Positions 29,303-41,969 are shown, counted from the first letter of the stretch. The stretch: 64,000 nt of DNA from an uncultured Methanosarcinaceae archaeon (GCA_963833425.1 CAWHXP010000008.1:564578-628577); one strand, 5' to 3'. Numbers and translations: made by a program. Notes: generated from the sequence alone by a model not told the origin.

Positions 29303-30157
29303 GGTTCCGTTGCAAAAAATTCAAAAAAATATGTAAATCTATAAGTGATGAATAAAAATCAGAATATTCAAGGAAAATGCACTAACATTATAAAACTATG
29401 TCAAACAATCGATTATTGTATTTGACTTCATTAAGAACAGAGTAATTTAAATTATTGACTTGTCTCTTTTTAATCATATTCATAGCTTCAATTCCTTTTA
29501 AAGTCTTATTAGCAGATCGAAAAGACTGAAATCCTAACATTGGATTAACGATTCGCTTTATAGATCTGTGACCTTGTTCTATAATGTTATTCAAATACTT
29601 GATTTGTCGAATGCCTACGTTCTTAAGTAGTATTTTATCAATTTTTAGTTTATCTATAGCATGTGGATAAGCTGGATTCTTATCAACGGTTGTTAATCTT
29701 GGAATTTGATTATGATTAGAACTTAAAGCTTTCTTAAAGAATCTCTTCGCTGCCTTTCTATCTCATTTTGAACTTAACATGAAATCAATTGTATCTCCAT
29801 TTGAGTCAACTGCTCGGTAAAAATATTCCCATTTATCTTTTACTTTGATATAGGTTTCATCAACTCTCCACGAATCATTTATTGGTCTTAAATGTCTTCT
29901 TATCTTCTTTTCTATTTCAGGGGAATATTGATGTACCCATCTCATGATTGTTGTATGGTCGACTTTTATTCCCCTTTCTGCCATCATTTCCTTTAAATTT
30001 CTATAACTTAATGCATATTTTAAGTACCATCTTACATTTAATAGGATAATTTCCCCTTCATAATGCTTCCATTTAAAGGAATTAGATAGCATGTTACTAT
30101 CTTTGGTTTTCTTTTTATTCAATTGTATTAGTAGAAAGGATTTTTTGCGATGGAACC
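29303..30157 (-). mobile_element. IS6-family insertion sequence (855 bp)
   Basis: Inverted repeats GGTTCCGTTGCAAAAAAT / ATTTTTTGCGATGGAACC; no obvious target-site duplication. Confidence 0.92.
29388..30092 (-). pseudogene. IS6 DDE transposase with one in-frame TGA
   Basis: FKWKHY..VRWYL..LSYR..VDHTTIMRWV..WRVDETYIKVK..YRAVD; TGA at 29763-29765, then DRKAAKRFFKKAL..TVDKNPAY..NNIIEQGHR in the same frame. Confidence 0.9.
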
Positions 30158-30193
30158 CCAATTCTTGATATACTCTGGAACGAATTAAATTAC

Positions 30194-31159
30194 ATGAATC
30201 TGGAGAAAACCGCAGGAGAAAGTGATTGCACGGGACGAATATACTCCGATATAACAGAGACAATAGGTAACACACCGCTTGTCCGGTTGAACCACATGAC
30301 AAAAGGTCTACATGCTGATGTGGTGGTTAAACTTGAGTCTTTTAACCCACTGGGGAGTGTAAAGGATAGGATTGGATTGGCAATGATCAAGGGAGCCGAA
30401 TGCGATGGTAAAATTAAATCTGGCACTATAATAGTTGAAGCAACTAGCGGTAACACTGGGATAGCGCTTGCAGGCGTATGCGCTGCCCGTGGCTATAAGC
30501 TTATACTGGTCATGCCTGAGACAATGACCATCGAAAGAAGAAAACTGTTGCAAGCTATGGGGGCAGATATCATCCTGACACCCGGGAGAGAAGGAATGAA
30601 AGGTGCCGTCAGTACAGCAGAGCAAATAGCTGCAGAAGATCCGATGCTTTATTTCATGCCCAAGCAATTTCAAAATCCTGAAAACCCTGAAATCCATCGC
30701 AGAACGACTGCCGAAGAAATATGGAAAGATACTGACGGCAAGGTGGATGTGCTTGTAGCAGGTGTAGGAACAGGCGGAACGATTACAGGCGTCGCAGGCG
30801 TCATCAAAAAAAGGAAACCTACTTTCAAGGTAGTTGCAGTCGAACCTGCAGAGTCTCCAGTTCTCAGCGGAGGAAGTCCGGGATTCCATAGGATCCAAGG
30901 CATTGGTTCAGGGTTCATTCCGGCTGTACTTCGGCTTGACTTGGTTGATGAAATAATTAAGGTAACTGGAGACGATGCAGCTGCTACGGCCAAAAAATTA
31001 GCAAGAAACGAAGGCATACTTGCAGGCATATCTTCAGGTGCAGCTACATATGCGGCACTGCAAGTTGCTTCCAGAGAAAAAATGAGTGGGAAAATGATTG
31101 TTGTAATCTTGCCAGATACGGGAGAACGTTATCTGAGTACCAATCTATTTGACGATTGA
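30194..31159 (+). CDS. cysK: cysteine synthase A (O-acetylserine sulfhydrylase)
   Basis: [16 protein letters not shown] (PLP Lys), [22 protein letters not shown] and [10 protein letters not shown] motifs. Confidence 0.96.
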
Positions 31160-32417: not shown

Positions 32418-33215
32418 TCATAGTATTTCATCCATACTACCGCTTCTATATCCTTTCAGGTCGAGAGTAACATAAGAAAAGCCGTATTCTTGCAATAACT
32501 CCACGATTCTATGTCTAATGTTTAATGCTTTTTCGAATTCTTCAGGCATCAACTCTATTCGCGCAATTTTACCGTGCAACCGTACGCGCAGATTGGAAAA
32601 TCCTAGATCTTGCAATATATTTTCGGCGTTTTCCACCATTTGCAGCTTTTCAATCGTTATCTCTTCACCATATGGAATTCTTGACGCTAGACATGAAGAT
32701 GATGATTTGTTCCAAAAATCAAAACCGCAATCTTGAGCTATCTGTCTTATATCAGCTTTATGAATTCCTAGATAAATAAAAGGGTGAATGATTTTCTCCT
32801 CATTGCTTGCTTGAAGTCCAGGACGGTATTCATTAAGATCTGAAGCGTTAATTCCATCAGCTATATTTGAAATAGCCAGCTTTTCAGCTTGGTCTCGTAG
32901 AATCCTCGCAGACTGCTTTTTGCAAATGTAGCAGCGATTGGGATTATTTCTCCTAAATTCTTCATTTTCCATTATGGAAAAAGGCAATATGCTACAAGAT
33001 AATCCGAATTTATTCGCGATATCCACCGCGTCATTAACTGCTCTTCTTGAGACTATAGGCGCATCAAAAAGTATACATTTTGCTCTCTCGTGAAGAGCTT
33101 TTTGCGCTAATACCGCAAGTAAAGTGCTGTCTATGCCCCCAGAATATGAAATGAGTAAGCTTTCAAATCCTGATAGCTCTTTGAGCAATGCGTCGCATAT
33201 ATTTTCTTTTTCCAT
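32418..33215 (-). CDS. larE: ATP-dependent sulfur transferase, LarE family
   Basis: PP-loop SYSGGIDS, RCYICK, DGINASD...YRPG, SCLASRIPYG, RVRLHG and GYRSGSM motifs. Confidence 0.92.
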   Translation of the reverse strand: MEKENICDALLKELSGFESLLISYSGGIDSTLLAVLAQKALHERAKCILFDAPIVSRRAVNDAVDIANKFGLSCSILPFSIMENEEFRRNNPNRCYICKKQSARILRDQAEKLAISNIADGINASDLNEYRPGLQASNEEKIIHPFIYLGIHKADIRQIAQDCGFDFWNKSSSSCLASRIPYGEEITIEKLQMVENAENILQDLGFSNLRVRLHGKIARIELMPEEFEKALNIRHRIVELLQEYGFSYVTLDLKGYRSGSMDEIL

Positions 33216-33399
33216 GGATGAATGCCGACTTTTTAATTTTTCAAGATTTTTTTGCAAATTTCATAATGTTATATTTTTTAGCATCATTCACTATTGTGAA
33301 TAGACTGAAAAAGATATTATTGGTAAAATACTTTTTGTCCCGAAAATGAAAGCTTAGGGATCTTCGCATAATTGATGTGATAAAAACAAATGTAATGCT

Positions 33400-34098: not shown

Positions 34099-34577
34099 AT
34101 GAGAAACATTAGTTATAAGAAAATAATGATCGCAACCCATGGTTAGAATTGCTCCAACCTGGCTATTTACAAAGGAATGGAGCTTGCACGATTGAGTGGA
34201 GGGACGGTTTATGCAGTCCATGTGATATCAACAGCTTACTTATCTCCAATAAGTGGAAATTATTTTATGGGCATGAATCCTTATTGGGAATCAATACACT
34301 AAGAGTTGAATCTTCAAGGGAAGCAGGCTGTAGATCATATAAAAGGCTTGGGAGAGGAAAAAGGAATTAATGTAGAATCTATTCTTCTTGAGGGCAATCC
34401 CTCAGAAGAATTGATCCGGTATGCCGATGAGGAAAAAAAATGGATATCGTTATTATGGGCAGTCTCGGAAAGACAAGATTCGACAGGTTATTTCTGGACA
34501 GCGTTGCAGGAAATTTAGTCCGACACTCAAAAGTTCCTGTTATGGTTGTAAGGAAAAAGAATGAGCTACGAGATTGA
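34099..34577 (+). pseudogene. universal stress protein, inactivated
   Basis: YKKIMIATHG*..., EGNPSEELIRYA, DIVIMGSLG and SVAGNLVRHSKVPVMVV; TAG, TAA and an A-tract frameshift. Confidence 0.9.
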
Positions 34578-34851
34578 TCTAAAATGGACTAAAGAGGATT
34601 CCTATCAATTTCCGATTTTCGCAAGCTATTTATGCATAATTTATTAGCATGTGACTATATTTTGTTGTTTCTAGAAATCCTCTTTTATCATATCTATGAA
34701 GAAAATTACAATTTTTAATTAGTTTATTCGTGCTATTTTTATTATTTTTTAATCATATAAGGACATCTACCTCCAAATTATATCCTTTAGAGGATATTTT
34801 TTGCCTATTTTAGGGAATCTTTATAAAATCCAGATATTAATAATTGACTAT

Positions 34852-35679
34852 ATGACACAACAATCTGCGACACAGCAATTCACTCTTACCATTATTTCTG
34901 GAAAAAACAGGTTTAGAGAGCAGGAAGGATTTGACCGTATAGAGATCAGACCTGGGGACACCTTGTCAATTGTTGGTCCTACCGGCTCAGGAAAATCAGC
35001 TTTCATTAATGATATTGAAACCCTTGCACAGGGAGATACAGTTACAGGCAGAACGATTCTCATCAATGGAGAAGTTCCCCCAGAGTCTTTTGTACGGGAA
35101 CCGGCCTTCAAACCGATTGCCATGATAACCCAAAACACACGTTGTTTGGCAGATCTCACAGTCGAAGCATTCATATTAATGCATATAAGAGCACGACGGC
35201 CTGGTAAGGAGGATTTGCTTGGTGAGACAATTAATCTTGCAAATACATTCACTGGAGAAAAAATAAGTCTTAAGAGTCGAATGAGTGCTTTATCTGGAGG
35301 TCAAACGAGGTCTATTATGATCGCAGATGCACTTATAGTCGGCGATACTCCAATACTTCTTCTCGATGAGATCGAAAACGCAGGTATCTTCAAAAATCGT
35401 GTAATGCAGGCTATTCAGGGAGGAAATAAAGCTGTTGTTCTTGTAACACACGATCCGTATCTCGCTCTCACAGCCGATAAGCGCATAGTGATGAGAAATG
35501 GAGGAGTTTACTCTGTGATCGAACCTACGGGCCAGGAGCAATACATTATTGAAGATCTTGCATTAATTGAAACCAAGCTAAATCAAATAAGAGAGAAAAT
35601 TAGACTTGGAACTGCTCTCTCTTCCTGTTCTTCGGAAGGTTTAATGATAGCAGTTGGCCAAGGTGTGGCTTCTAAATGA
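34852..35679 (+). CDS. ABC-type ATPase with no adjacent permease
   Basis: Walker A GPTGSGKS, Q-loop ITQN, LSGGQ, Walker B LLLDEIE, H-loop VTHD. Confidence 0.9.
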   Translation: MTQQSATQQFTLTIISGKNRFREQEGFDRIEIRPGDTLSIVGPTGSGKSAFINDIETLAQGDTVTGRTILINGEVPPESFVREPAFKPIAMITQNTRCLADLTVEAFILMHIRARRPGKEDLLGETINLANTFTGEKISLKSRMSALSGGQTRSIMIADALIVGDTPILLLDEIENAGIFKNRVMQAIQGGNKAVVLVTHDPYLALTADKRIVMRNGGVYSVIEPTGQEQYIIEDLALIETKLNQIREKIRLGTALSSCSSEGLMIAVGQGVASK

Positions 35680-36380
35680 AGCTTCTTATAATTGCAGGTC
35701 CTCCAAGTGGAGGAAAAACTGCTGTGATTCGCCAGATTATAAGAAATCTTCCTGAAGATGCACTTCCCTCCTTTCTGAAAATTGATGTTGTACACGCAAC
35801 TGAAGATCAGGAACTTGCAGAAGAATTTTGTATTCCTGTTAAGAAAATATATTCCGGAGATGTTTGTCCTGATCACATGGGAATTCTGGTCCTTGATGAT
35901 GCAGTGAACTGGGCTAAAAGCCTATCCCGAAATATTCTTATAATCGAAAGTGCAGGCCTCTGTTTGAGATGTACTCCTTATACAACGCAATCTCTTGGAA
36001 TTGCAGTTATCAGCGCGATATCAGGAACAAATTCACCACTCAAAATGGCACCTTTGATTGCTCTTGCAGATGTCGCAGTTGTTACCAAAACCGATCTCGT
36101 GTCACAAGCAGAAAAAGAAGTTTTTAGGGAAAGTATCAAAAAAGTTGTCTCAGATATTGATATTATAGAGACAAATGCAATTCAGGGAACTGGGTTAAGA
36201 TATCTGATGAGACGGATTGCCGACCAGTCGGATATGGGGTCAGAACCTGTAGTGCTCAGAGGCTCCCCGCCACTAGGAGTATGTACTATATGTATAGGCA
36301 AAAAAGAGATAGGATGGAAAAATCACTTTGGAGTCATCAGGCCACTGGATATGCCAGATCCTATGTACAGAGGTGACTGA
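35676..36380 (+). CDS. UreG/HypB-like (G3E) P-loop GTPase
   Basis: GPPSGGKT, SGDVCPDH, IIESAGLCLRC, VTKTD and C-terminal CTIC; ATGA overlap with the upstream gene. Confidence 0.88.
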   Translation: MKLLIIAGPPSGGKTAVIRQIIRNLPEDALPSFLKIDVVHATEDQELAEEFCIPVKKIYSGDVCPDHMGILVLDDAVNWAKSLSRNILIIESAGLCLRCTPYTTQSLGIAVISAISGTNSPLKMAPLIALADVAVVTKTDLVSQAEKEVFRESIKKVVSDIDIIETNAIQGTGLRYLMRRIADQSDMGSEPVVLRGSPPLGVCTICIGKKEIGWKNHFGVIRPLDMPDPMYRGD

Positions 36381-37039
36381 TGGTTAATACATGGAGTCCA
36401 CCTGGGAAAAATTGTGGGGCTTGTGGATCTCATACGTGTAATGATTTCATTGATCGTCTTGGAGAAGGATCAGCAGAGTTAGACTTATGTCCATTCTACA
36501 GTAGTGAGAATATCATAGGTCAGGATACTACCTTTACCCTGGGGAATTCCGAAATTCAGGTCAGAAATGCCACTTATTCTGGTATAGATGTTACTGGAAG
36601 AGAATATGACTTCGTACTTCTCCCGTTCCCGGGTGAGCCATCAGCACGCAAGTTTATAGTACCTTTTAGGGCAGATCTTGTCGAATTGTGGGGAATTAAA
36701 AAAGGAGACCTAGTAATTGGCCGTCCTGCAGGACCAGGCTGTCCTCTTTATCATGCTTTAAAGGTCTTGAGTGCAAACCCTGTAACAGGAGTACTTGAGT
36801 GTCATACTGTAGGCCCTCTAGCTGCACGAAAAGAAGATTCTCATGATGTCCAAGCATATCATGTCCATGCTTTCGAAGGAGTTGTCAGTATTATAAAAAA
36901 ACCACCTGTCCTTGGAACCCGTCAGTATTTCCTGCCTGGTAGCTGTATGATGGATCTCGCACATACAGCTCTTGTAAACATGATTTTCCATAAGCCCTTT
37001 GGAACTCATGTCCGGCTTGAAGATATAAGGATATTATGA
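36380..37039 (+). CDS. Fe-S cluster domain protein
   Basis: N-terminal PGKNCGACGSHTC...CPF (RnfB/CdhE-type Fe-S domain), plus GPGCP and CMMDLAH; TGATG coupling with the GTPase gene. Confidence 0.85.
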   Translation: MVNTWSPPGKNCGACGSHTCNDFIDRLGEGSAELDLCPFYSSENIIGQDTTFTLGNSEIQVRNATYSGIDVTGREYDFVLLPFPGEPSARKFIVPFRADLVELWGIKKGDLVIGRPAGPGCPLYHALKVLSANPVTGVLECHTVGPLAARKEDSHDVQAYHVHAFEGVVSIIKKPPVLGTRQYFLPGSCMMDLAHTALVNMIFHKPFGTHVRLEDIRIL

Positions 37040-37063
37040 GAATATTGAATAGATCGGGGTACT

Positions 37064-38308
37064 ATGAAGACTATTGACGAAATAAATGAGAAAATCGCCC
37101 GTGAAGAAGCAATTATTCTTACAGCGGCCGAGCTTAAATCCATTGTACGTGACGGTCAAAAGATAACTGCTAGAGATGTGGATGTAATTACTACAGGAAC
37201 ATTTGGCGTGATGTCCGGTACCATGGCAGTTATGATGGTACCTGTTGCGGAAAAATGTAGTTTTGAAAAAGCGGATTCAATTTGGCTAAATGGTGTGCCG
37301 GCTCAGCCTGGCCCCTGTCCAAACGAACGTCTTGGAGTTGTGGACCTTGTCATTAACGGGACATCACATGCAGATGACCGATATGGCGGAGGACATCTTT
37401 TTAGAGATCTTGTAAAAGGAAAAGAGATCGACATTTTTGTTGAAGCTCATGGCAGAACTTACGAAAATAGAGTTACTCTTGATGATATCGAGTTTGCCAG
37501 GATCATTACCACAAGACTTGCATTTAAGAATTACCATGCGTTGATAAATCCCACTGCAACTACGATGAGTACTATATTCTCTGTGACAGGTCTAACAGGT
37601 CCTTTTACAGAAGCATCCGTATCGGGATGTGGCGAAATAAACCCTTTACAGAATGATCCATACCATAGAATAATTGGGATAGGTACACGAGTCCTCTTAA
37701 ATGGCGCTTCAGGTTATATTATGGGAAGAGGAACCAGGTCCAGCCCAGATAAACCGAATGTCTCTGCCTTTGCAGACATGAAGGCCATGGACCCTAGCAT
37801 GATGGGCGGAATGAAAACTTCCCATGGTCCTGAGTGTCTAACCTCACTTGCAGTTCCAATACCTGTTTTGGATGAAGAGATTCTCTTGGGATTAAAAGTT
37901 CTTGATCGTGATATTCCATTGCCTGTTTCAGACATAAACGGGCGTACTGCTCACACAAAAGTAAACTACGGACATATCTGGGAAGGCACCGATAAAGTTA
38001 TCCGGGTCGACAAGGACAGGTGTCTCAACCATCCCGATTGTCCTGCAATGCGCACGTGTCCTACGGAAGCAATTTCAGACCGTTTCGTAATTAACAGGCA
38101 TCTATGTATCAACTGCGGTACTTGTACCCTACAATGTCCTGGAGGGGTATTCCGTGCAAGACTTGGATCCATAGATTTGGCTGAAGGATCTGTCCCTATT
38201 TCGCTAAGACAATCAGATAGAGCCAGGGCGGAAAAGCTCTGTATGGTGCTTAAAAATCGTATTCAAAATCATAAATTCATACCAACGAAGATGATGGAAC
38301 CGCTGTAA
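37064..38308 (+). CDS. methanogenesis marker 16 metalloprotein (DUF39-type domain plus C-terminal ferredoxin)
   Basis: KTIDEINEKI, DVDVITTGTFGVMSGT, GPCPNERLG, YGGGHLF, SGCGEINPLQNDP; C-terminal CLNHPDC...CP and CINCGTCTLQCP. Confidence 0.88.
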   Translation: MKTIDEINEKIAREEAIILTAAELKSIVRDGQKITARDVDVITTGTFGVMSGTMAVMMVPVAEKCSFEKADSIWLNGVPAQPGPCPNERLGVVDLVINGTSHADDRYGGGHLFRDLVKGKEIDIFVEAHGRTYENRVTLDDIEFARIITTRLAFKNYHALINPTATTMSTIFSVTGLTGPFTEASVSGCGEINPLQNDPYHRIIGIGTRVLLNGASGYIMGRGTRSSPDKPNVSAFADMKAMDPSMMGGMKTSHGPECLTSLAVPIPVLDEEILLGLKVLDRDIPLPVSDINGRTAHTKVNYGHIWEGTDKVIRVDKDRCLNHPDCPAMRTCPTEAISDRFVINRHLCINCGTCTLQCPGGVFRARLGSIDLAEGSVPISLRQSDRARAEKLCMVLKNRIQNHKFIPTKMMEPL

Positions 38309-38619
38309 CAGAGTCCAAATTTGTGAACATACTTGAGATCGCAGTACTAGTGGCAGGTCAGCAATATAAAGTTGTAGAATGAAAGTTCTGTAAAAATTCA
38401 ATTATCTCACATCCTTTTTTACTAGTGGCTGTAAGGTACTAAAGATAGTAAGCATAAGAATATCTTTGCATTTTTTCAAATTATTCGGTAAAACTTATTT
38501 TTTCATAATTAATCAAGGACCCTAGGATACGATCAAGTTATTGAATTGGATCATTTCTTATGATTGAGAATAATATCCCGATAGACAATTAAAATATTTA
38601 CAGCACATATGTTGGCTTC

Positions 38620-39677: not shown

Positions 39678-40657
39678 TCGGGCTTTCTTGACCACTTTTG
39701 AGTACGTTTCAAAGTGAAAACTTAGTGCTTATTTTATAGTTATATGTCGAGACAAAGCATGTCAGCTACTTGCAACACTCTACACAACCCATTTTTTTAT
39801 GGCGAAATGTGCCTCAAACATCCACGTGATCTTAAAGAATATTTTTTCTTGGTGAACGAAAGATAATTTAAAAACGATGTAGGAAATATAATTGAATCAA
39901 GATTAAACAGTCTCATAAAAGCTGTCTCAAAACTAAATTTGATTCCACAATTGGGATAAAATACTATCCTATAAGGTTAATGTTTACCTGAATTTCTGAA
40001 GAAAAGAAACTTGCAGAGTAATTTAGAATTATTCAAAATAAATGGGCATTAAGAGAGTAGCTAAATTACTAATTTCTCAAAATATCGACTAATTTAATAA
40101 TGAGTGTCTAAAATAGAGAAATGTAAATATACTATCTTTAATACTACTTTTCGCAAGTGTGCACAGGCACCACCTCTTTTTTATCGGCATAAGATCATCT
40201 TAGAAATAAATACGATCTTCTTCGGACAACACGCTCTTATGAACGAAAATATGCTCCAAAAAACTCTTTTTGAACATTGGTTATATCATTATTTTTGGTA
40301 AGAAATTTGTTATAATTTTGGTTTTTAAAATTGTCGAAAAAGGGTCCGTAAATTGCTATCTTAAACCTCAAAATTACTTTGATCACGAATGTTAAATTAG
40401 CATTTTAGATAATTTCATAGCCAATGAATTGGCTATTCAAATTGGCAAAAATAGCTAACGAGTCTTGTGGTTTAGACTTTCAGAAAAGTTTCTTTATTGC
40501 TACTTTCCTCGGTATATCTGGTGAAAAATAGTTGTAACATTTCGCTAGAGATGATGACTCACGCGGATTGTAGTGTGAATGCAAATTTCACTAAATCTGT
40601 AGGAATTCTTGGTTACTGAGGATTATGAATTAAATTCGAAAAATGGTTTTATCCATA

Positions 40658-41969
40658 TCAGAGCTTAAGGACCTTTGCGGCTTTTAAAGCACTGAAAACC
40701 ATAGTTTCAATATCCATCTTTTTTTCTTCAAGCGCAATTAGATCGTAATTTGCCCCTATTTCGGGATGTTCCGGGACGGCAGTACATGTACCTACTGATC
40801 TACTGGAAATATCATAAGTCCCAATTTTGCGGGCCATATCCATAATCTCTGTTTTGTCAAAGGCGATCAAAGGGTGATAGACTGGAACCGCAAGTTGATA
40901 AACCTCAGCATACATGTTGGCAGCAGTTTGAGATGCTACCTGTCCGAGGGAAGAGCCGGTGATAATTCCACTTGCTTTTTCCTTTTTCATGATCTCGTAG
41001 GCTTCTCTGTACATCATGCGTTTACAGAGAAGACATGTATTCTTCCTATTGCATTTTGCGATAAAGGATTGCAGATTAGGACCATGAGGAATCTCATAAG
41101 TTGTAAACTGATGCCCTGGAGCCCACTTATGGAGCTGGCGGATGCAATCAAAAACACGCTCATTTGCCTCTTTTTGGGCATAAGGAGCATTGTTACAATA
41201 GACAAGAATAATCATAACTCCACGTTTCATCATGAGCCAGGCTGCAACCGGTGAATCAAGCCCTCCTGACATTAGAACTACCATGCTGCCCTGTGTGCCA
41301 AGTGTGAGTCCTCCGATCCCTTTAAATGTTTTCAGATAAACATACGCTAAATTTTGCCGCATTTCGACGAAGATCTCCTTATCAGGAGAAGTTAGGTTAA
41401 CTCTAGGTTTTTTTTCCTAATTTTTCCATGAAATTCCAGACCGCATCTCCACAGGCTTTAGCAATATCTACTGAGGAAAAAGGATGGTTCCCACTTTTCC
41501 TCGCTCTGATTGCAAAAAACTCACCATCATGAATAAAATCTTGACCAAGAGCTGCACATACACTAGCTGCATCTTCAAGGCTGGCTCCTGTTGTCAACGC
41601 AGCGGAAGTTGAGACAACCCCAAAAACATCGGCTACTGTTTCAGCAGCTTGAGAATTCGTGGTCTCAATGAATATCCTGCCCCATTCCCGACGAATTCGA
41701 GAATAGGAAATTTCTCTCGAATCCAACATTGCCGCAATATTTTTTAGAAGGATTTTCTCATACCAGTTCCTAATTCCAGGACTTTTAAGAGCAAGTTCTC
41801 CATAACGGACTATAACCACATCTGTCGGAACTTCAGTCTCTGAACGATAGGAGCCAGAAAAATGCCTAGACATATTTTCATCATATTTTTTTTGCATTCG
41901 TCCGCTTTTTTCCTGAATATGAACATCAGGTTCAATTTTTGTTTCAGCATCATTGGATTTGTTTGTCAT
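40658..41969 (-). pseudogene. thiI: tRNA 4-thiouridine sulfurtransferase ThiI, split by one extra A
   Basis: VRYGELALKS and THUMP domain in 41403-41969; GGLTLGTQG, MSGGLDSPVA, CLLCKR and LGQVASQT in 40658-41362; A8 tract at 41408-41415, where A7 would give LGKKPRVNLTSPDKEIFVEMRQ. Confidence 0.9.

Follow-up and report, generated by a model that had tools for sequence, protein, structure and literature searches.

We analysed a stretch of 64,000 nucleotides from an uncultured Methanosarcinaceae archaeon (GCA_963833425.1 CAWHXP010000008.1:564578-628577; the whole stretch is called the window here) and concentrated on an operon of four genes at positions 34852..38308. The first three genes, abc, gtp and fes, encode an ABC-type ATPase, a GTPase and an iron-sulfur (Fe-S) protein and are referred to together as the trio. 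The fourth gene, mmp16, encodes methanogenesis marker 16 metalloprotein (MMP16), which acts in coenzyme M (CoM) synthesis. All four genes lie on one strand, and we read the following features:

34820..34828, plus strand: TTTATAAAA, TATA-box-like element and putative promoter about 28 nt before the ATG of abc (read from the sequence)
34852..35679, plus strand: abc, soluble, permease-less ABC-type ATPase of 275 aa, first gene of the trio (PF00005)
35676..36380, plus strand: gtp, G3E-family, UreG/HypB-like GTPase of 234 aa with a Cys-rich C-terminal extension (PF02492)
36380..37039, plus strand: fes, COG2000 Fe-S protein of 219 aa with an N-terminal 4-Cys PF04060 domain and a C-terminal beta-rich domain (PF04060)
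37064..38308, plus strand: mmp16, ComF-type MMP16 of 414 aa, a COG1900 domain plus a ferredoxin domain (TIGR03287)

We take the upstream element to resemble an archaeal TATA box. The stop of abc overlaps the start of gtp as ATGA, gtp and fes overlap as TGATG, and a gap of 24 bp separates fes from mmp16. Hydropathy scanning (Kyte-Doolittle, 19-residue mean, threshold 1.6) detected no transmembrane segments in the four proteins, the top mean being below 1.6 in each. These observations agree with the first-pass annotation of the window, which had described four intact genes over the same span, the same junctions, translational coupling of the first three, the short gap before the fourth and the absence of membrane segments. 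What was observed at first pass was confirmed, and its interpretation was partly supported. The GC content of the operon is 0.39-0.43, compared with 0.34 in the flanks; as a signal of transfer this is not diagnostic, as the intact cysK region of the window also has 0.42.

The GTPase matched the cobW/HypB/UreG family PF02492 (47.2 bits, cut-off 20.7) and scored below the equivalog cut-offs of hypB (TIGR00073, 54.2 and 121.2 bits, respectively) and ureG (TIGR00101, 29.7 and 204.2 bits, respectively). On these scores we class it as a G3E chaperone-like protein and not as UreG or HypB proper. It carries CPDH, CLRC and CTIC motifs, whose Cys and His residues were invariant in 18 diverse homologues. 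The complete invariant set (18/18) consisted of GxxxxGKT, C64, P65, D66, H67, E91, C96, C99, D140, C203, C206 and H217, and both Walker A (G8..G13-K14-T15) and ExxG (E91..G94) were retained. The NKxD position reads T137-K/R-x-D140, with invariant Thr and Asp and with the canonical Asn replaced. The segment C64-P-D-H67 aligned on the CP-H of UreG chain 4hi0_E and chain 5xkt_A; in UreG the CPH motif at the dimer interface binds Ni. When the structural model was compared by Foldseek, UreG and HypB took the top ranks (TM-score 0.61-0.73, E=4e-9 to 5e-8), and the Cys-rich tail was disordered.

The ATPase was recognised by PF00005 (53.2 bits, gathering threshold 25, E=6e-14), and its translation contains GPTGSGKS, LSGGQ, LLLDE and THD, which we take to be the usual ABC motifs. 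Its best scores against NCBIfam models were <=56.5 bits, far under every cut-off and with no transporter model coming close, and its matches in PDB were generic ABC nucleotide-binding domains. Neither SufC (TIGR01978) nor A2 (AtwA, TIGR03269) was among its 25 best of 138 families; true SufC genes that neighbour the trio in relatives score 207-213 bits on TIGR01978. The genes annotated around 15 loci of relatives included no ABC permease, in line with the absence of a permease assumed at first pass.

In the Fe-S protein, PF04060 covered residues 8-39 only (40.2 bits, gathering threshold 23, E=2.8e-10), and its four cysteines C12, C15, C20 and C37 were invariant in 19/19 homologues. The C-terminal domain has an invariant set of its own in the same 19/19 (R115, P116, C121, P122, H125, C189, H195, R212 and E214), within which C121, H125, C189 and H195 form a putative Cys2His2 metal site outside the 4-Cys domain. 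The AlphaFold2 model had a pLDDT of 83, with the C-terminal domain confidently modelled. Foldseek gave no match to this protein in PDB at E<=1e-3, and the best VIA-align result among 48,161 chains (Z 4.0) fell on small beta-barrel pieces from phage tail proteins and PilZ, which neither names nor excludes a family. A search of the ESM Atlas returned PF04060 clusters only. The family is small, as 126 clusters at 50% identity matched at E<=1e-3 among 1.84 billion representatives. We looked for fused forms among 14 longer or odd representatives and found the same architecture or no Pfam match, apart from one doubtful dockerin match below the cut-off. Some public records (P0042, P0259) call the protein "acetyl-CoA decarbonylase/synthase complex subunit gamma", apparently from the 33-residue PF04060 domain. 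We rejected the identity with CdhE, the gamma subunit of that complex, as NF003195 gave 23.9 bits (cut-off 306).

MMP16 scored 507.2 bits on TIGR03287 (cut-off 363.95) and 337.8 bits on PF01837 (E=8e-101), with Fer4 in addition. Four Cys of its ferredoxin part are invariant (C348, C351, C354 and C358). The first motif reads C320-x2-H323-x2-C326-x5-C332 (window 38021-38059), with His in place of the usual Cys. This CxxHxxC form was present in 11/11 Methanosarcina MMP16s of the acquired type described below. CxxCxxC was found in 22/23 other trio-adjacent MMP16s (Pro in L014), and each of the 20 rows in the other two groups had Cys at this position. The replacement suggests a His-ligated or altered cluster. 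Residue 258 (motif GPEC, window 37835-37837) is Cys in 41/41 rows with the trio adjacent or near and in 3/13 rows without a trio in the locus; the other 10/13 have Ile or Val. The protein features noted at first pass, namely the three Cys motifs of the GTPase, the 4-Cys domain of the third protein and the DUF39-type domain plus ferredoxin of the fourth, were thus all recovered.

MMP16 was recently described as ComF, the primary CoM synthase of M. acetivorans, which converts sulfoacetaldehyde into CoM (Chadwick, Williams, Shalvarjian, Nayak, PLoS Genet 2025, PMC12068725). The first-pass annotation had mentioned this reaction as the proposed last step of CoM synthesis. According to that paper, the evidence for the synthase is genetic for MA3299 only and heterologous for MJ1681 only; its introduction states that MJ1681 alone let E. 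coli make CoM. Loss of MMP16 caused CoM auxotrophy only without sulfide, whereas with high sulfide the cells could do without the enzyme; what donates sulfur to COG1900 enzymes is given as not known (PMC12068725). The legend of its Fig 2 places genes for an ATPase, a Ni2+-binding GTPase and a COG2000 Fe-S protein beside CoM genes and says that their "putative role remains unknown"; the preprint has the same statement. These are the same three families, in the same order and next to MMP16. Full-text literature searches returned no other paper on the trio, and PMC12713407 does not mention it. The first-pass statement that no functional characterisation of the trio is known agrees with the role being called unknown in print, but the colocalisation with CoM genes had already been published. 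The window differs from the published gene set in that its cassette contains MMP16 only and lies far from the cysteate synthase gene (cs) and comDE, in that it was, as judged from trees, horizontally acquired, and in that relatives have a second copy. Residues, fold, phyletic pattern and transfer of the trio are not analysed in the text of the paper. New here are the horizontally transferred variant and the evidence for co-transfer, while MMP16 had been characterised and the gene set was in print.

We searched 201 whole genomes of the phylum and counted a full-length COG2000 match as presence of the trio. Around COG2000 matches 38 loci were fetched, and 80 further loci were found with an 8-row alignment of the Fe-S protein, a query which biases them towards the window's own subtype. 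These 80 come from Methanosarcina, Methanospirillum, Methanoregula, Methanosphaerula, Methanocalculus and Methanofollis. The 119 loci to which the counts below refer are not independent, and at least three are duplicates. The order abc-gtp-fes with overlapping stops and starts was observed in all 38 loci, one of which is truncated by the start of its contig so that abc is missing, and in the 80 further loci wherever the flank was present. Between Methanosarcina and Methanomicrobiales the Fe-S protein is 63-68% and the GTPase 68-71% identical.

A CoM gene (cs, comDE or mmp16) was located within 6 kb in 96/119 loci. Directly behind fes we found mmp16 (46/119, adjacent or overlapping), cs (35/119), comD/E (8/119), an NMT1/SsuA-like gene (6/119), larE on the opposite strand (6/119), thiI (1/119), or another gene or none (17/119). 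The gene directly before abc was cs in 14/119 loci and a divergent HTH_3 regulator gene in 38/119. The trio is a strongly conserved cassette without a permease, and its link to marker 16, proposed at first pass, was supported by the 46 loci with mmp16 behind fes; in the tree described below, 34 trio-adjacent MMP16s formed one clade. The main architectures were as follows (a bar marks divergent genes):

Several Methanomicrobiales lineages: HTH | trio-mmp16-cs-comDE
Many Methanoregula: NMT1-like, HTH | trio-cs-comDE
Methanosarcinaceae genera g5 and g6: cs-trio-comD-comE, with mmp16 convergent
Methanospirillum: trio-NMT1-like-E1
Family f10: abc-gtp-NifS-fes beside SufBC, NifU, SAMP and E1
Methanosarcina of the window type: trio-mmp16-ThiI

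The 23/119 loci without a CoM gene within 6 kb hold NifS, NifU, SufBC, a ThiF/MoeB-type E1, SAMP/MoaD, LarE or ThiI instead. One lineage (L020, L023) has SufBC, NifS and NifU next to the trio, and in L020 NifS is inserted between gtp and fes. The SsuA/NMT1-like protein, of the sulfonate-binding type, is a frequent neighbour; its Pfam match starts at residue 3-5 and there is no signal peptide. On the chromosome of Methanospirillum lacunae we observed two paralogous trios (L067, L125), one with the NMT1-like gene and a ThiF/MoeB-type E1, the other at the head of HTH | trio-mmp16-cs-comDE. The HTH_3 (XRE-type) protein has 162 aa (e.g. L005:6046-6534, L010:5287-5775), its C-terminal part matches no assigned family, and it probably regulates the CoM operon. 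A homologue with 41% identity is encoded elsewhere in the window genome (C3:569162-569641).

Among the 201 genomes the trio was present in 44, the window genome included, MMP16 above its cut-off in 94, and a cs match at E<=1e-60 in 100. All 44 trio genomes had cs (43 above the cut-off, the 44th being the window genome with its broken cs), and 37 of them had MMP16. The seven without MMP16 are G064 and G194 (98-99% complete) and G077, G085, G093, G117 and G132 (81-99% complete). The complete chromosome of Methanoregula SKADARSKE-2 has trio-cs-comDE, no MMP16 and only an L-ASST-type COG1900 gene. No COG2000 match was obtained in 57/94 MMP16 genomes, and therefore MMP16 works without the trio. In genus g9, trio, MMP16 and cs occur together in 5/7 genomes, and the 2/7 without the trio also lack cs and MMP16. 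Thus the trio follows the CoM pathway of the cysteate synthase type as a whole, is optional within it (56/100 cs genomes have no trio) and is not tied to MMP16 alone. The profiling against marker 16 that had been suggested at first pass speaks against a trio dedicated to this enzyme, as the trio nests in cs genomes and not in MMP16 genomes.

No true match of the Fe-S protein was detected in 150 Nitrospirota genomes. The lone hit of that search was a Methanosarcina-like contig in a 151st genome (G206), 79% identical to the window Fe-S protein and probably misbinned. A metagenome-assembled genome (MAG) labelled Nitrospirae (L053/L136) has trio-mmp16-ThiI, 79% identical to the window, and one labelled Nanohalarchaeota (L120) has HTH | trio-cs of the methanogen type; both are probably misbinned.

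Identity between the window proteins and those of several Methanosarcina is 80-91%; it is 63-71% for Methanoregula and Methanospirillum, and only 35-43% for the trio of other Methanosarcinaceae. In a tree of the concatenated GTPase and Fe-S protein (68 rows), eight Methanosarcina rows formed a clade (support 100) nested in a 33-row clade of Methanoregulaceae and Methanospirillaceae (97), and the vertical Methanosarcinales trio lay across branches of 5.3 and 2.0 changes per column. In the MMP16 tree (55 rows, L-ASST as outgroup), the clade of 34 trio-adjacent rows (96) contained the 11 Methanosarcina rows (99), and the canonical Methanosarcina MMP16s were placed in another, Methanosarcinales clade (97). 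Forcing a single Methanosarcina MMP16 clade cost 133 log-likelihood units (approximately unbiased test, p-AU 2.8e-6, with the tested group chosen after the tree had been viewed). Because both trees nest the Methanosarcina rows within Methanomicrobiales, the four-gene operon must have entered a Methanosarcina subgroup from Methanomicrobiales as one unit. It has been kept in many Methanosarcina lineages. The window MMP16 belongs to the trio-adjacent clade, in which the Methanomicrobiales members are followed by cs and comDE. Therefore the first-pass suggestion that the thiol made by this enzyme is possibly not CoM is unsupported.

Two Methanosarcina encode both types of MMP16, canonical and window-type: M. 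hadiensis (613 and 499 bits, respectively) and sp. DH2 (611 and 502 bits, respectively). In relatives the canonical gene follows comDE (L042, L043, L124). A tblastn search of the window genome assembly, which is 80% complete, found no canonical Methanosarcina-type MMP16. The idea of a marker 16 paralog thus holds for M. hadiensis and sp. DH2, but in the window genome only one full-length MMP16 was found, that of the window, and the operon may supply the sole ComF. There is no cs or comDE in the window, as had been noted at first pass; both are on contig C7 (C7:296999-299562), where cs is split over several frames while comDE beside it is unbroken.

The end of contig C16 (C16:96192-98931, L003) holds a partial second copy of the operon. 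The final 489 bp of mmp16 in this copy match window 37891-38379 at 96.5% identity, with a frame break, and its ThiI region is 88% identical over 2059 bp (window 39835-41883), in the mmp16-ThiI order of other Methanosarcina. This copy is either a real duplication or a trace of two strains in one assembly. A third copy of the ThiI region (82%) is located on contig C19.

Contigs from metatranscriptomes (3 libraries of 2 studies), 90-95% alike and so derived from relatives, covered all four genes and bridged the three junctions. The abc/gtp junction was bridged at 34875-35737 (run X12, record 9), gtp/fes at 36058-36647 (run X9, record 28), and fes/mmp16 at 36823-37985 (run X12, record 15) and 36981-37476 (run X9, record 29). 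The parts of the stretch left uncovered in runs X1 and X17 carry no meaning. These contigs lend weak support to expression of the operon in relatives.

The operon would combine the last step of CoM synthesis with a self-contained accessory machine. We tentatively favour a reading, held with somewhat less than even confidence, in which the trio is an NTP-driven metal- or sulfur-loading machine and supplies the thiol-forming step with sulfur or electrons. The three proteins would form a soluble complex with the COG2000 protein as its working part. The N-terminal [4Fe-4S] domain of this protein is of a type that would take up low-potential electrons, and in the beta-rich domain invariant Arg and Glu would flank the invariant Cys2His2 site. 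Hydrolysis of GTP and ATP by the GTPase and the ATPase would drive the loading, or reloading, of this site with a metal or metal-sulfur species. The loaded protein would then pass reduced sulfur, possibly with electrons, to an aldehyde-thiolating COG1900 enzyme, which would be MMP16 here, turning sulfoacetaldehyde into the thiol CoM, and an L-ASST of the homocysteine type where MMP16 is absent. The outcome would be efficient CoM synthesis without reliance on free sulfide. Formation of the complex, the metal site, the cargo and its recipient are all inferred. This reading fits the sulfur donor missing for COG1900 enzymes, the sulfide-dependent phenotype of the MMP16 deletion and the contexts with NifS, ThiI, LarE and E1.

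Several points weigh against it. MJ1681 alone gave CoM in E. coli (PMC12068725), and more than half of the MMP16 genomes (57/94) gave no COG2000 match, among them 5/5 genomes of the same genus with a canonical ComF (582-617 bits, beside cs-comDE). Many Methanoregula have trio-cs-comDE with MMP16 elsewhere or absent, an arrangement that a function at the sulfite-using step would explain no less well. Binding within the trio and to MMP16, the metal, and the clustering of the Cys2His2 residues in space are predictions. The contigs from RNA libraries belong to relatives and do not prove a single transcript, and such libraries can contain DNA. The data do not separate sulfur delivery from sulfite supply or from maturation of MMP16.

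The main rival is that the trio makes, or safely carries, sulfite for cysteate synthase and thereby the CoM sulfonate, with MMP16 as a mere neighbour in the pathway; we regard this as possible, though rather unlikely. It draws on the presence of cs in every trio genome (44/44, seven without MMP16), on the place of cs, which immediately follows fes in 35 of the 119 loci and immediately precedes abc in 14, and on Methanoregula SKADARSKE-2, G064 and G194, which have trio-cs-comDE and no MMP16. A cytoplasmic SsuA/NMT1-like protein is a frequent neighbour, and the source of the CoM sulfite is called unclear in PMC6286981. However, in the window and in the sampled Methanosarcina lineages of this type (11 rows of the MMP16 tree) the trio arrived and was kept with mmp16 and without cs, the contexts outside CoM synthesis contain reduced-sulfur enzymes (NifS, ThiI, LarE, E1/SAMP) and not users of sulfite, and 56/100 cs genomes manage without the trio. 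Formation of sulfite from sulfide would also be a six-electron oxidation, for which the trio proteins appear to offer no precedent. The distribution of sulfite-reductase-like NIR_SIR genes (PF01077) was uninformative for the sulfite idea, as we observed no complementarity with the trio: PF01077 occurs in 129/201 genomes and in most trio families, and in family f6 it was found in 0/24 regardless of the trio.

A broader and bolder form, which we think a little less probable still, makes the trio the missing inorganic-sulfur branch of CoM synthesis, as the sulfite source for cysteate synthase or as a thiolation system independent of MMP16. If true, trio, cs and comDE would suffice for CoM without MMP16, the cases being Methanoregula SKADARSKE-2, G064, G194 and part of genus g24, and the COG2000 domain would represent a novel Cys2His2 type of metal-sulfur enzyme fold.

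The first-pass annotation had interpreted the trio as a maturase or activase dedicated to MMP16, which in this reading would build or activate the enzyme's own metal centre. The adjacency or overlap of fes and mmp16 in 46/119 loci, the single clade of trio-adjacent MMP16s, the transfer of the four genes together and Cys258 in 41/41 trio-linked rows, against 3/13 without a trio in the locus, are what one would expect from such a maturase. We nevertheless find it improbable: 7/44 trio genomes lack MMP16, 57/94 MMP16 genomes, among them 5/5 same-genus genomes with canonical ComF, gave no COG2000 match, and an MMP16 homologue functions without the trio in E. coli (PMC12068725). The Cys258 pattern amounts to 2 changes on the tree and 2 independent pairs and has no statistical weight.

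Less probable again is a general Fe-S cluster or sulfur-trafficking module without a specific tie to CoM, located beside CoM genes as these demand sulfur. The 23/119 loci with NifS, NifU, SufBC, E1, SAMP, LarE or ThiI in place of CoM genes would be accounted for, but CoM genes accompany the trio at 96/119 loci, the trio was found only in cs-positive genomes (44/44), it was lost together with the CoM pathway in g9, and the 150 Nitrospirota genomes gave no true match. Finally, that the ATPase energises a sulfonate or CoM ABC importer whose permease lies elsewhere, with gtp and fes as unrelated passengers, is hardly credible: the frequent SsuA/NMT1-like binding-protein homologue would suit it, but this protein matches its Pfam profile from residue 3-5 without a signal peptide, no ABC permease was seen among the genes annotated around 15 loci, and every locus shows abc in translational coupling with gtp and fes.

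The loading machine that we favour has likenesses to several known systems. With UreG and HypB the window GTPase shares the fold, Walker A and a CP(D)H segment aligned to the nickel-binding CPH of UreG, but it is set apart by an additional invariant CxRC and by a C-terminal extension with CxxC...H. We saw no partner of the UreE/F/H or HypA kind; the proteins to which the GTPase is coupled are an ABC ATPase and one of COG2000. SufBC(D) resembles the trio in that an ABC ATPase lacking a permease is encoded together with a Cys-rich partner; however, the ATPase here is not SufC-like, the cassette has no SufB/D homologue, and a GTPase is added. In the activation of methyl-coenzyme M reductase, the soluble, methanogen-specific ABC ATPase A2 (AtwA) is proposed to couple ATP to the delivery of low-potential electrons via Fe-S proteins. 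A2 is a twin-cassette protein, whereas the window ATPase has a single cassette and other partners, so that this is an analogy only. L-ASST (MA1821/MA1822) with MA1715, which serves homocysteine synthesis, is alike in being a COG1900 enzyme that needs a ferredoxin module and a sulfur-trafficking helper (PMC12068725). The helper families differ, and MMP16 has its own ferredoxin domain. The L-ASST system is not known to include NTPases.

All biological pathways that form or oxidise methane depend on CoM. Two points of its synthesis are open, namely the origin of sulfite in sulfide-grown anaerobes and the sulfur and electron donor of the thiol-forming step. MMP16 is dispensable at high sulfide, and therefore other factors matter. 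The trio fits as a candidate for the missing part because it lies in CoM operons, was found in cs genomes only, is lost with the pathway and was co-transferred with ComF. The Fe-S gene is present in cultured Methanosarcina (M. mazei strains, M. barkeri 3 and M. vacuolata), and the question can therefore be tested by genetics. The trio would add a new client and a new type of partner to the UreG/HypB chaperone family and could offer a methanogen-specific target for methane mitigation.

The operon is flanked in the window by further genes of sulfur metabolism:

30194..31159, plus strand: cysteine synthase CysK (TIGR01139, 463 bits, cut-off 351)
32418..33257, minus strand: LarE-type PP-loop sulfur transferase (TIGR00268, 288 bits, cut-off 150)
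40658..41969, minus strand: ThiI, tRNA 4-thiouridine sulfurtransferase, split in two frames (TIGR00342 matches both pieces)

The first-pass annotation had placed the operon between pseudogenes. Broken frames are indeed present on both sides. ThiI is divided into 40658-41362 and 41403-41969, with the break (41400-41410, minus strand) at an A8 run, and a universal-stress-like gene at 34147-34577 is spread over three frames. In MAGs of close relatives the operon genes themselves, trio and mmp16, are in pieces (L046, L047, L050, L094). As the ThiI break falls at a homopolymer and operon copies are fragmented in relatives, some or many of the "pseudogenes" of this lineage may be sequencing errors. 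In other Methanosarcina, ThiI stands directly after mmp16 on the same strand (L048, L049, L053, L059, L061, L062, L117), and in 6/119 relatives' loci a LarE homologue lies behind the trio on the opposite strand. A transposase-like open reading frame, judged by its translation only, overlaps the start of cysK (29763-30302, minus strand).

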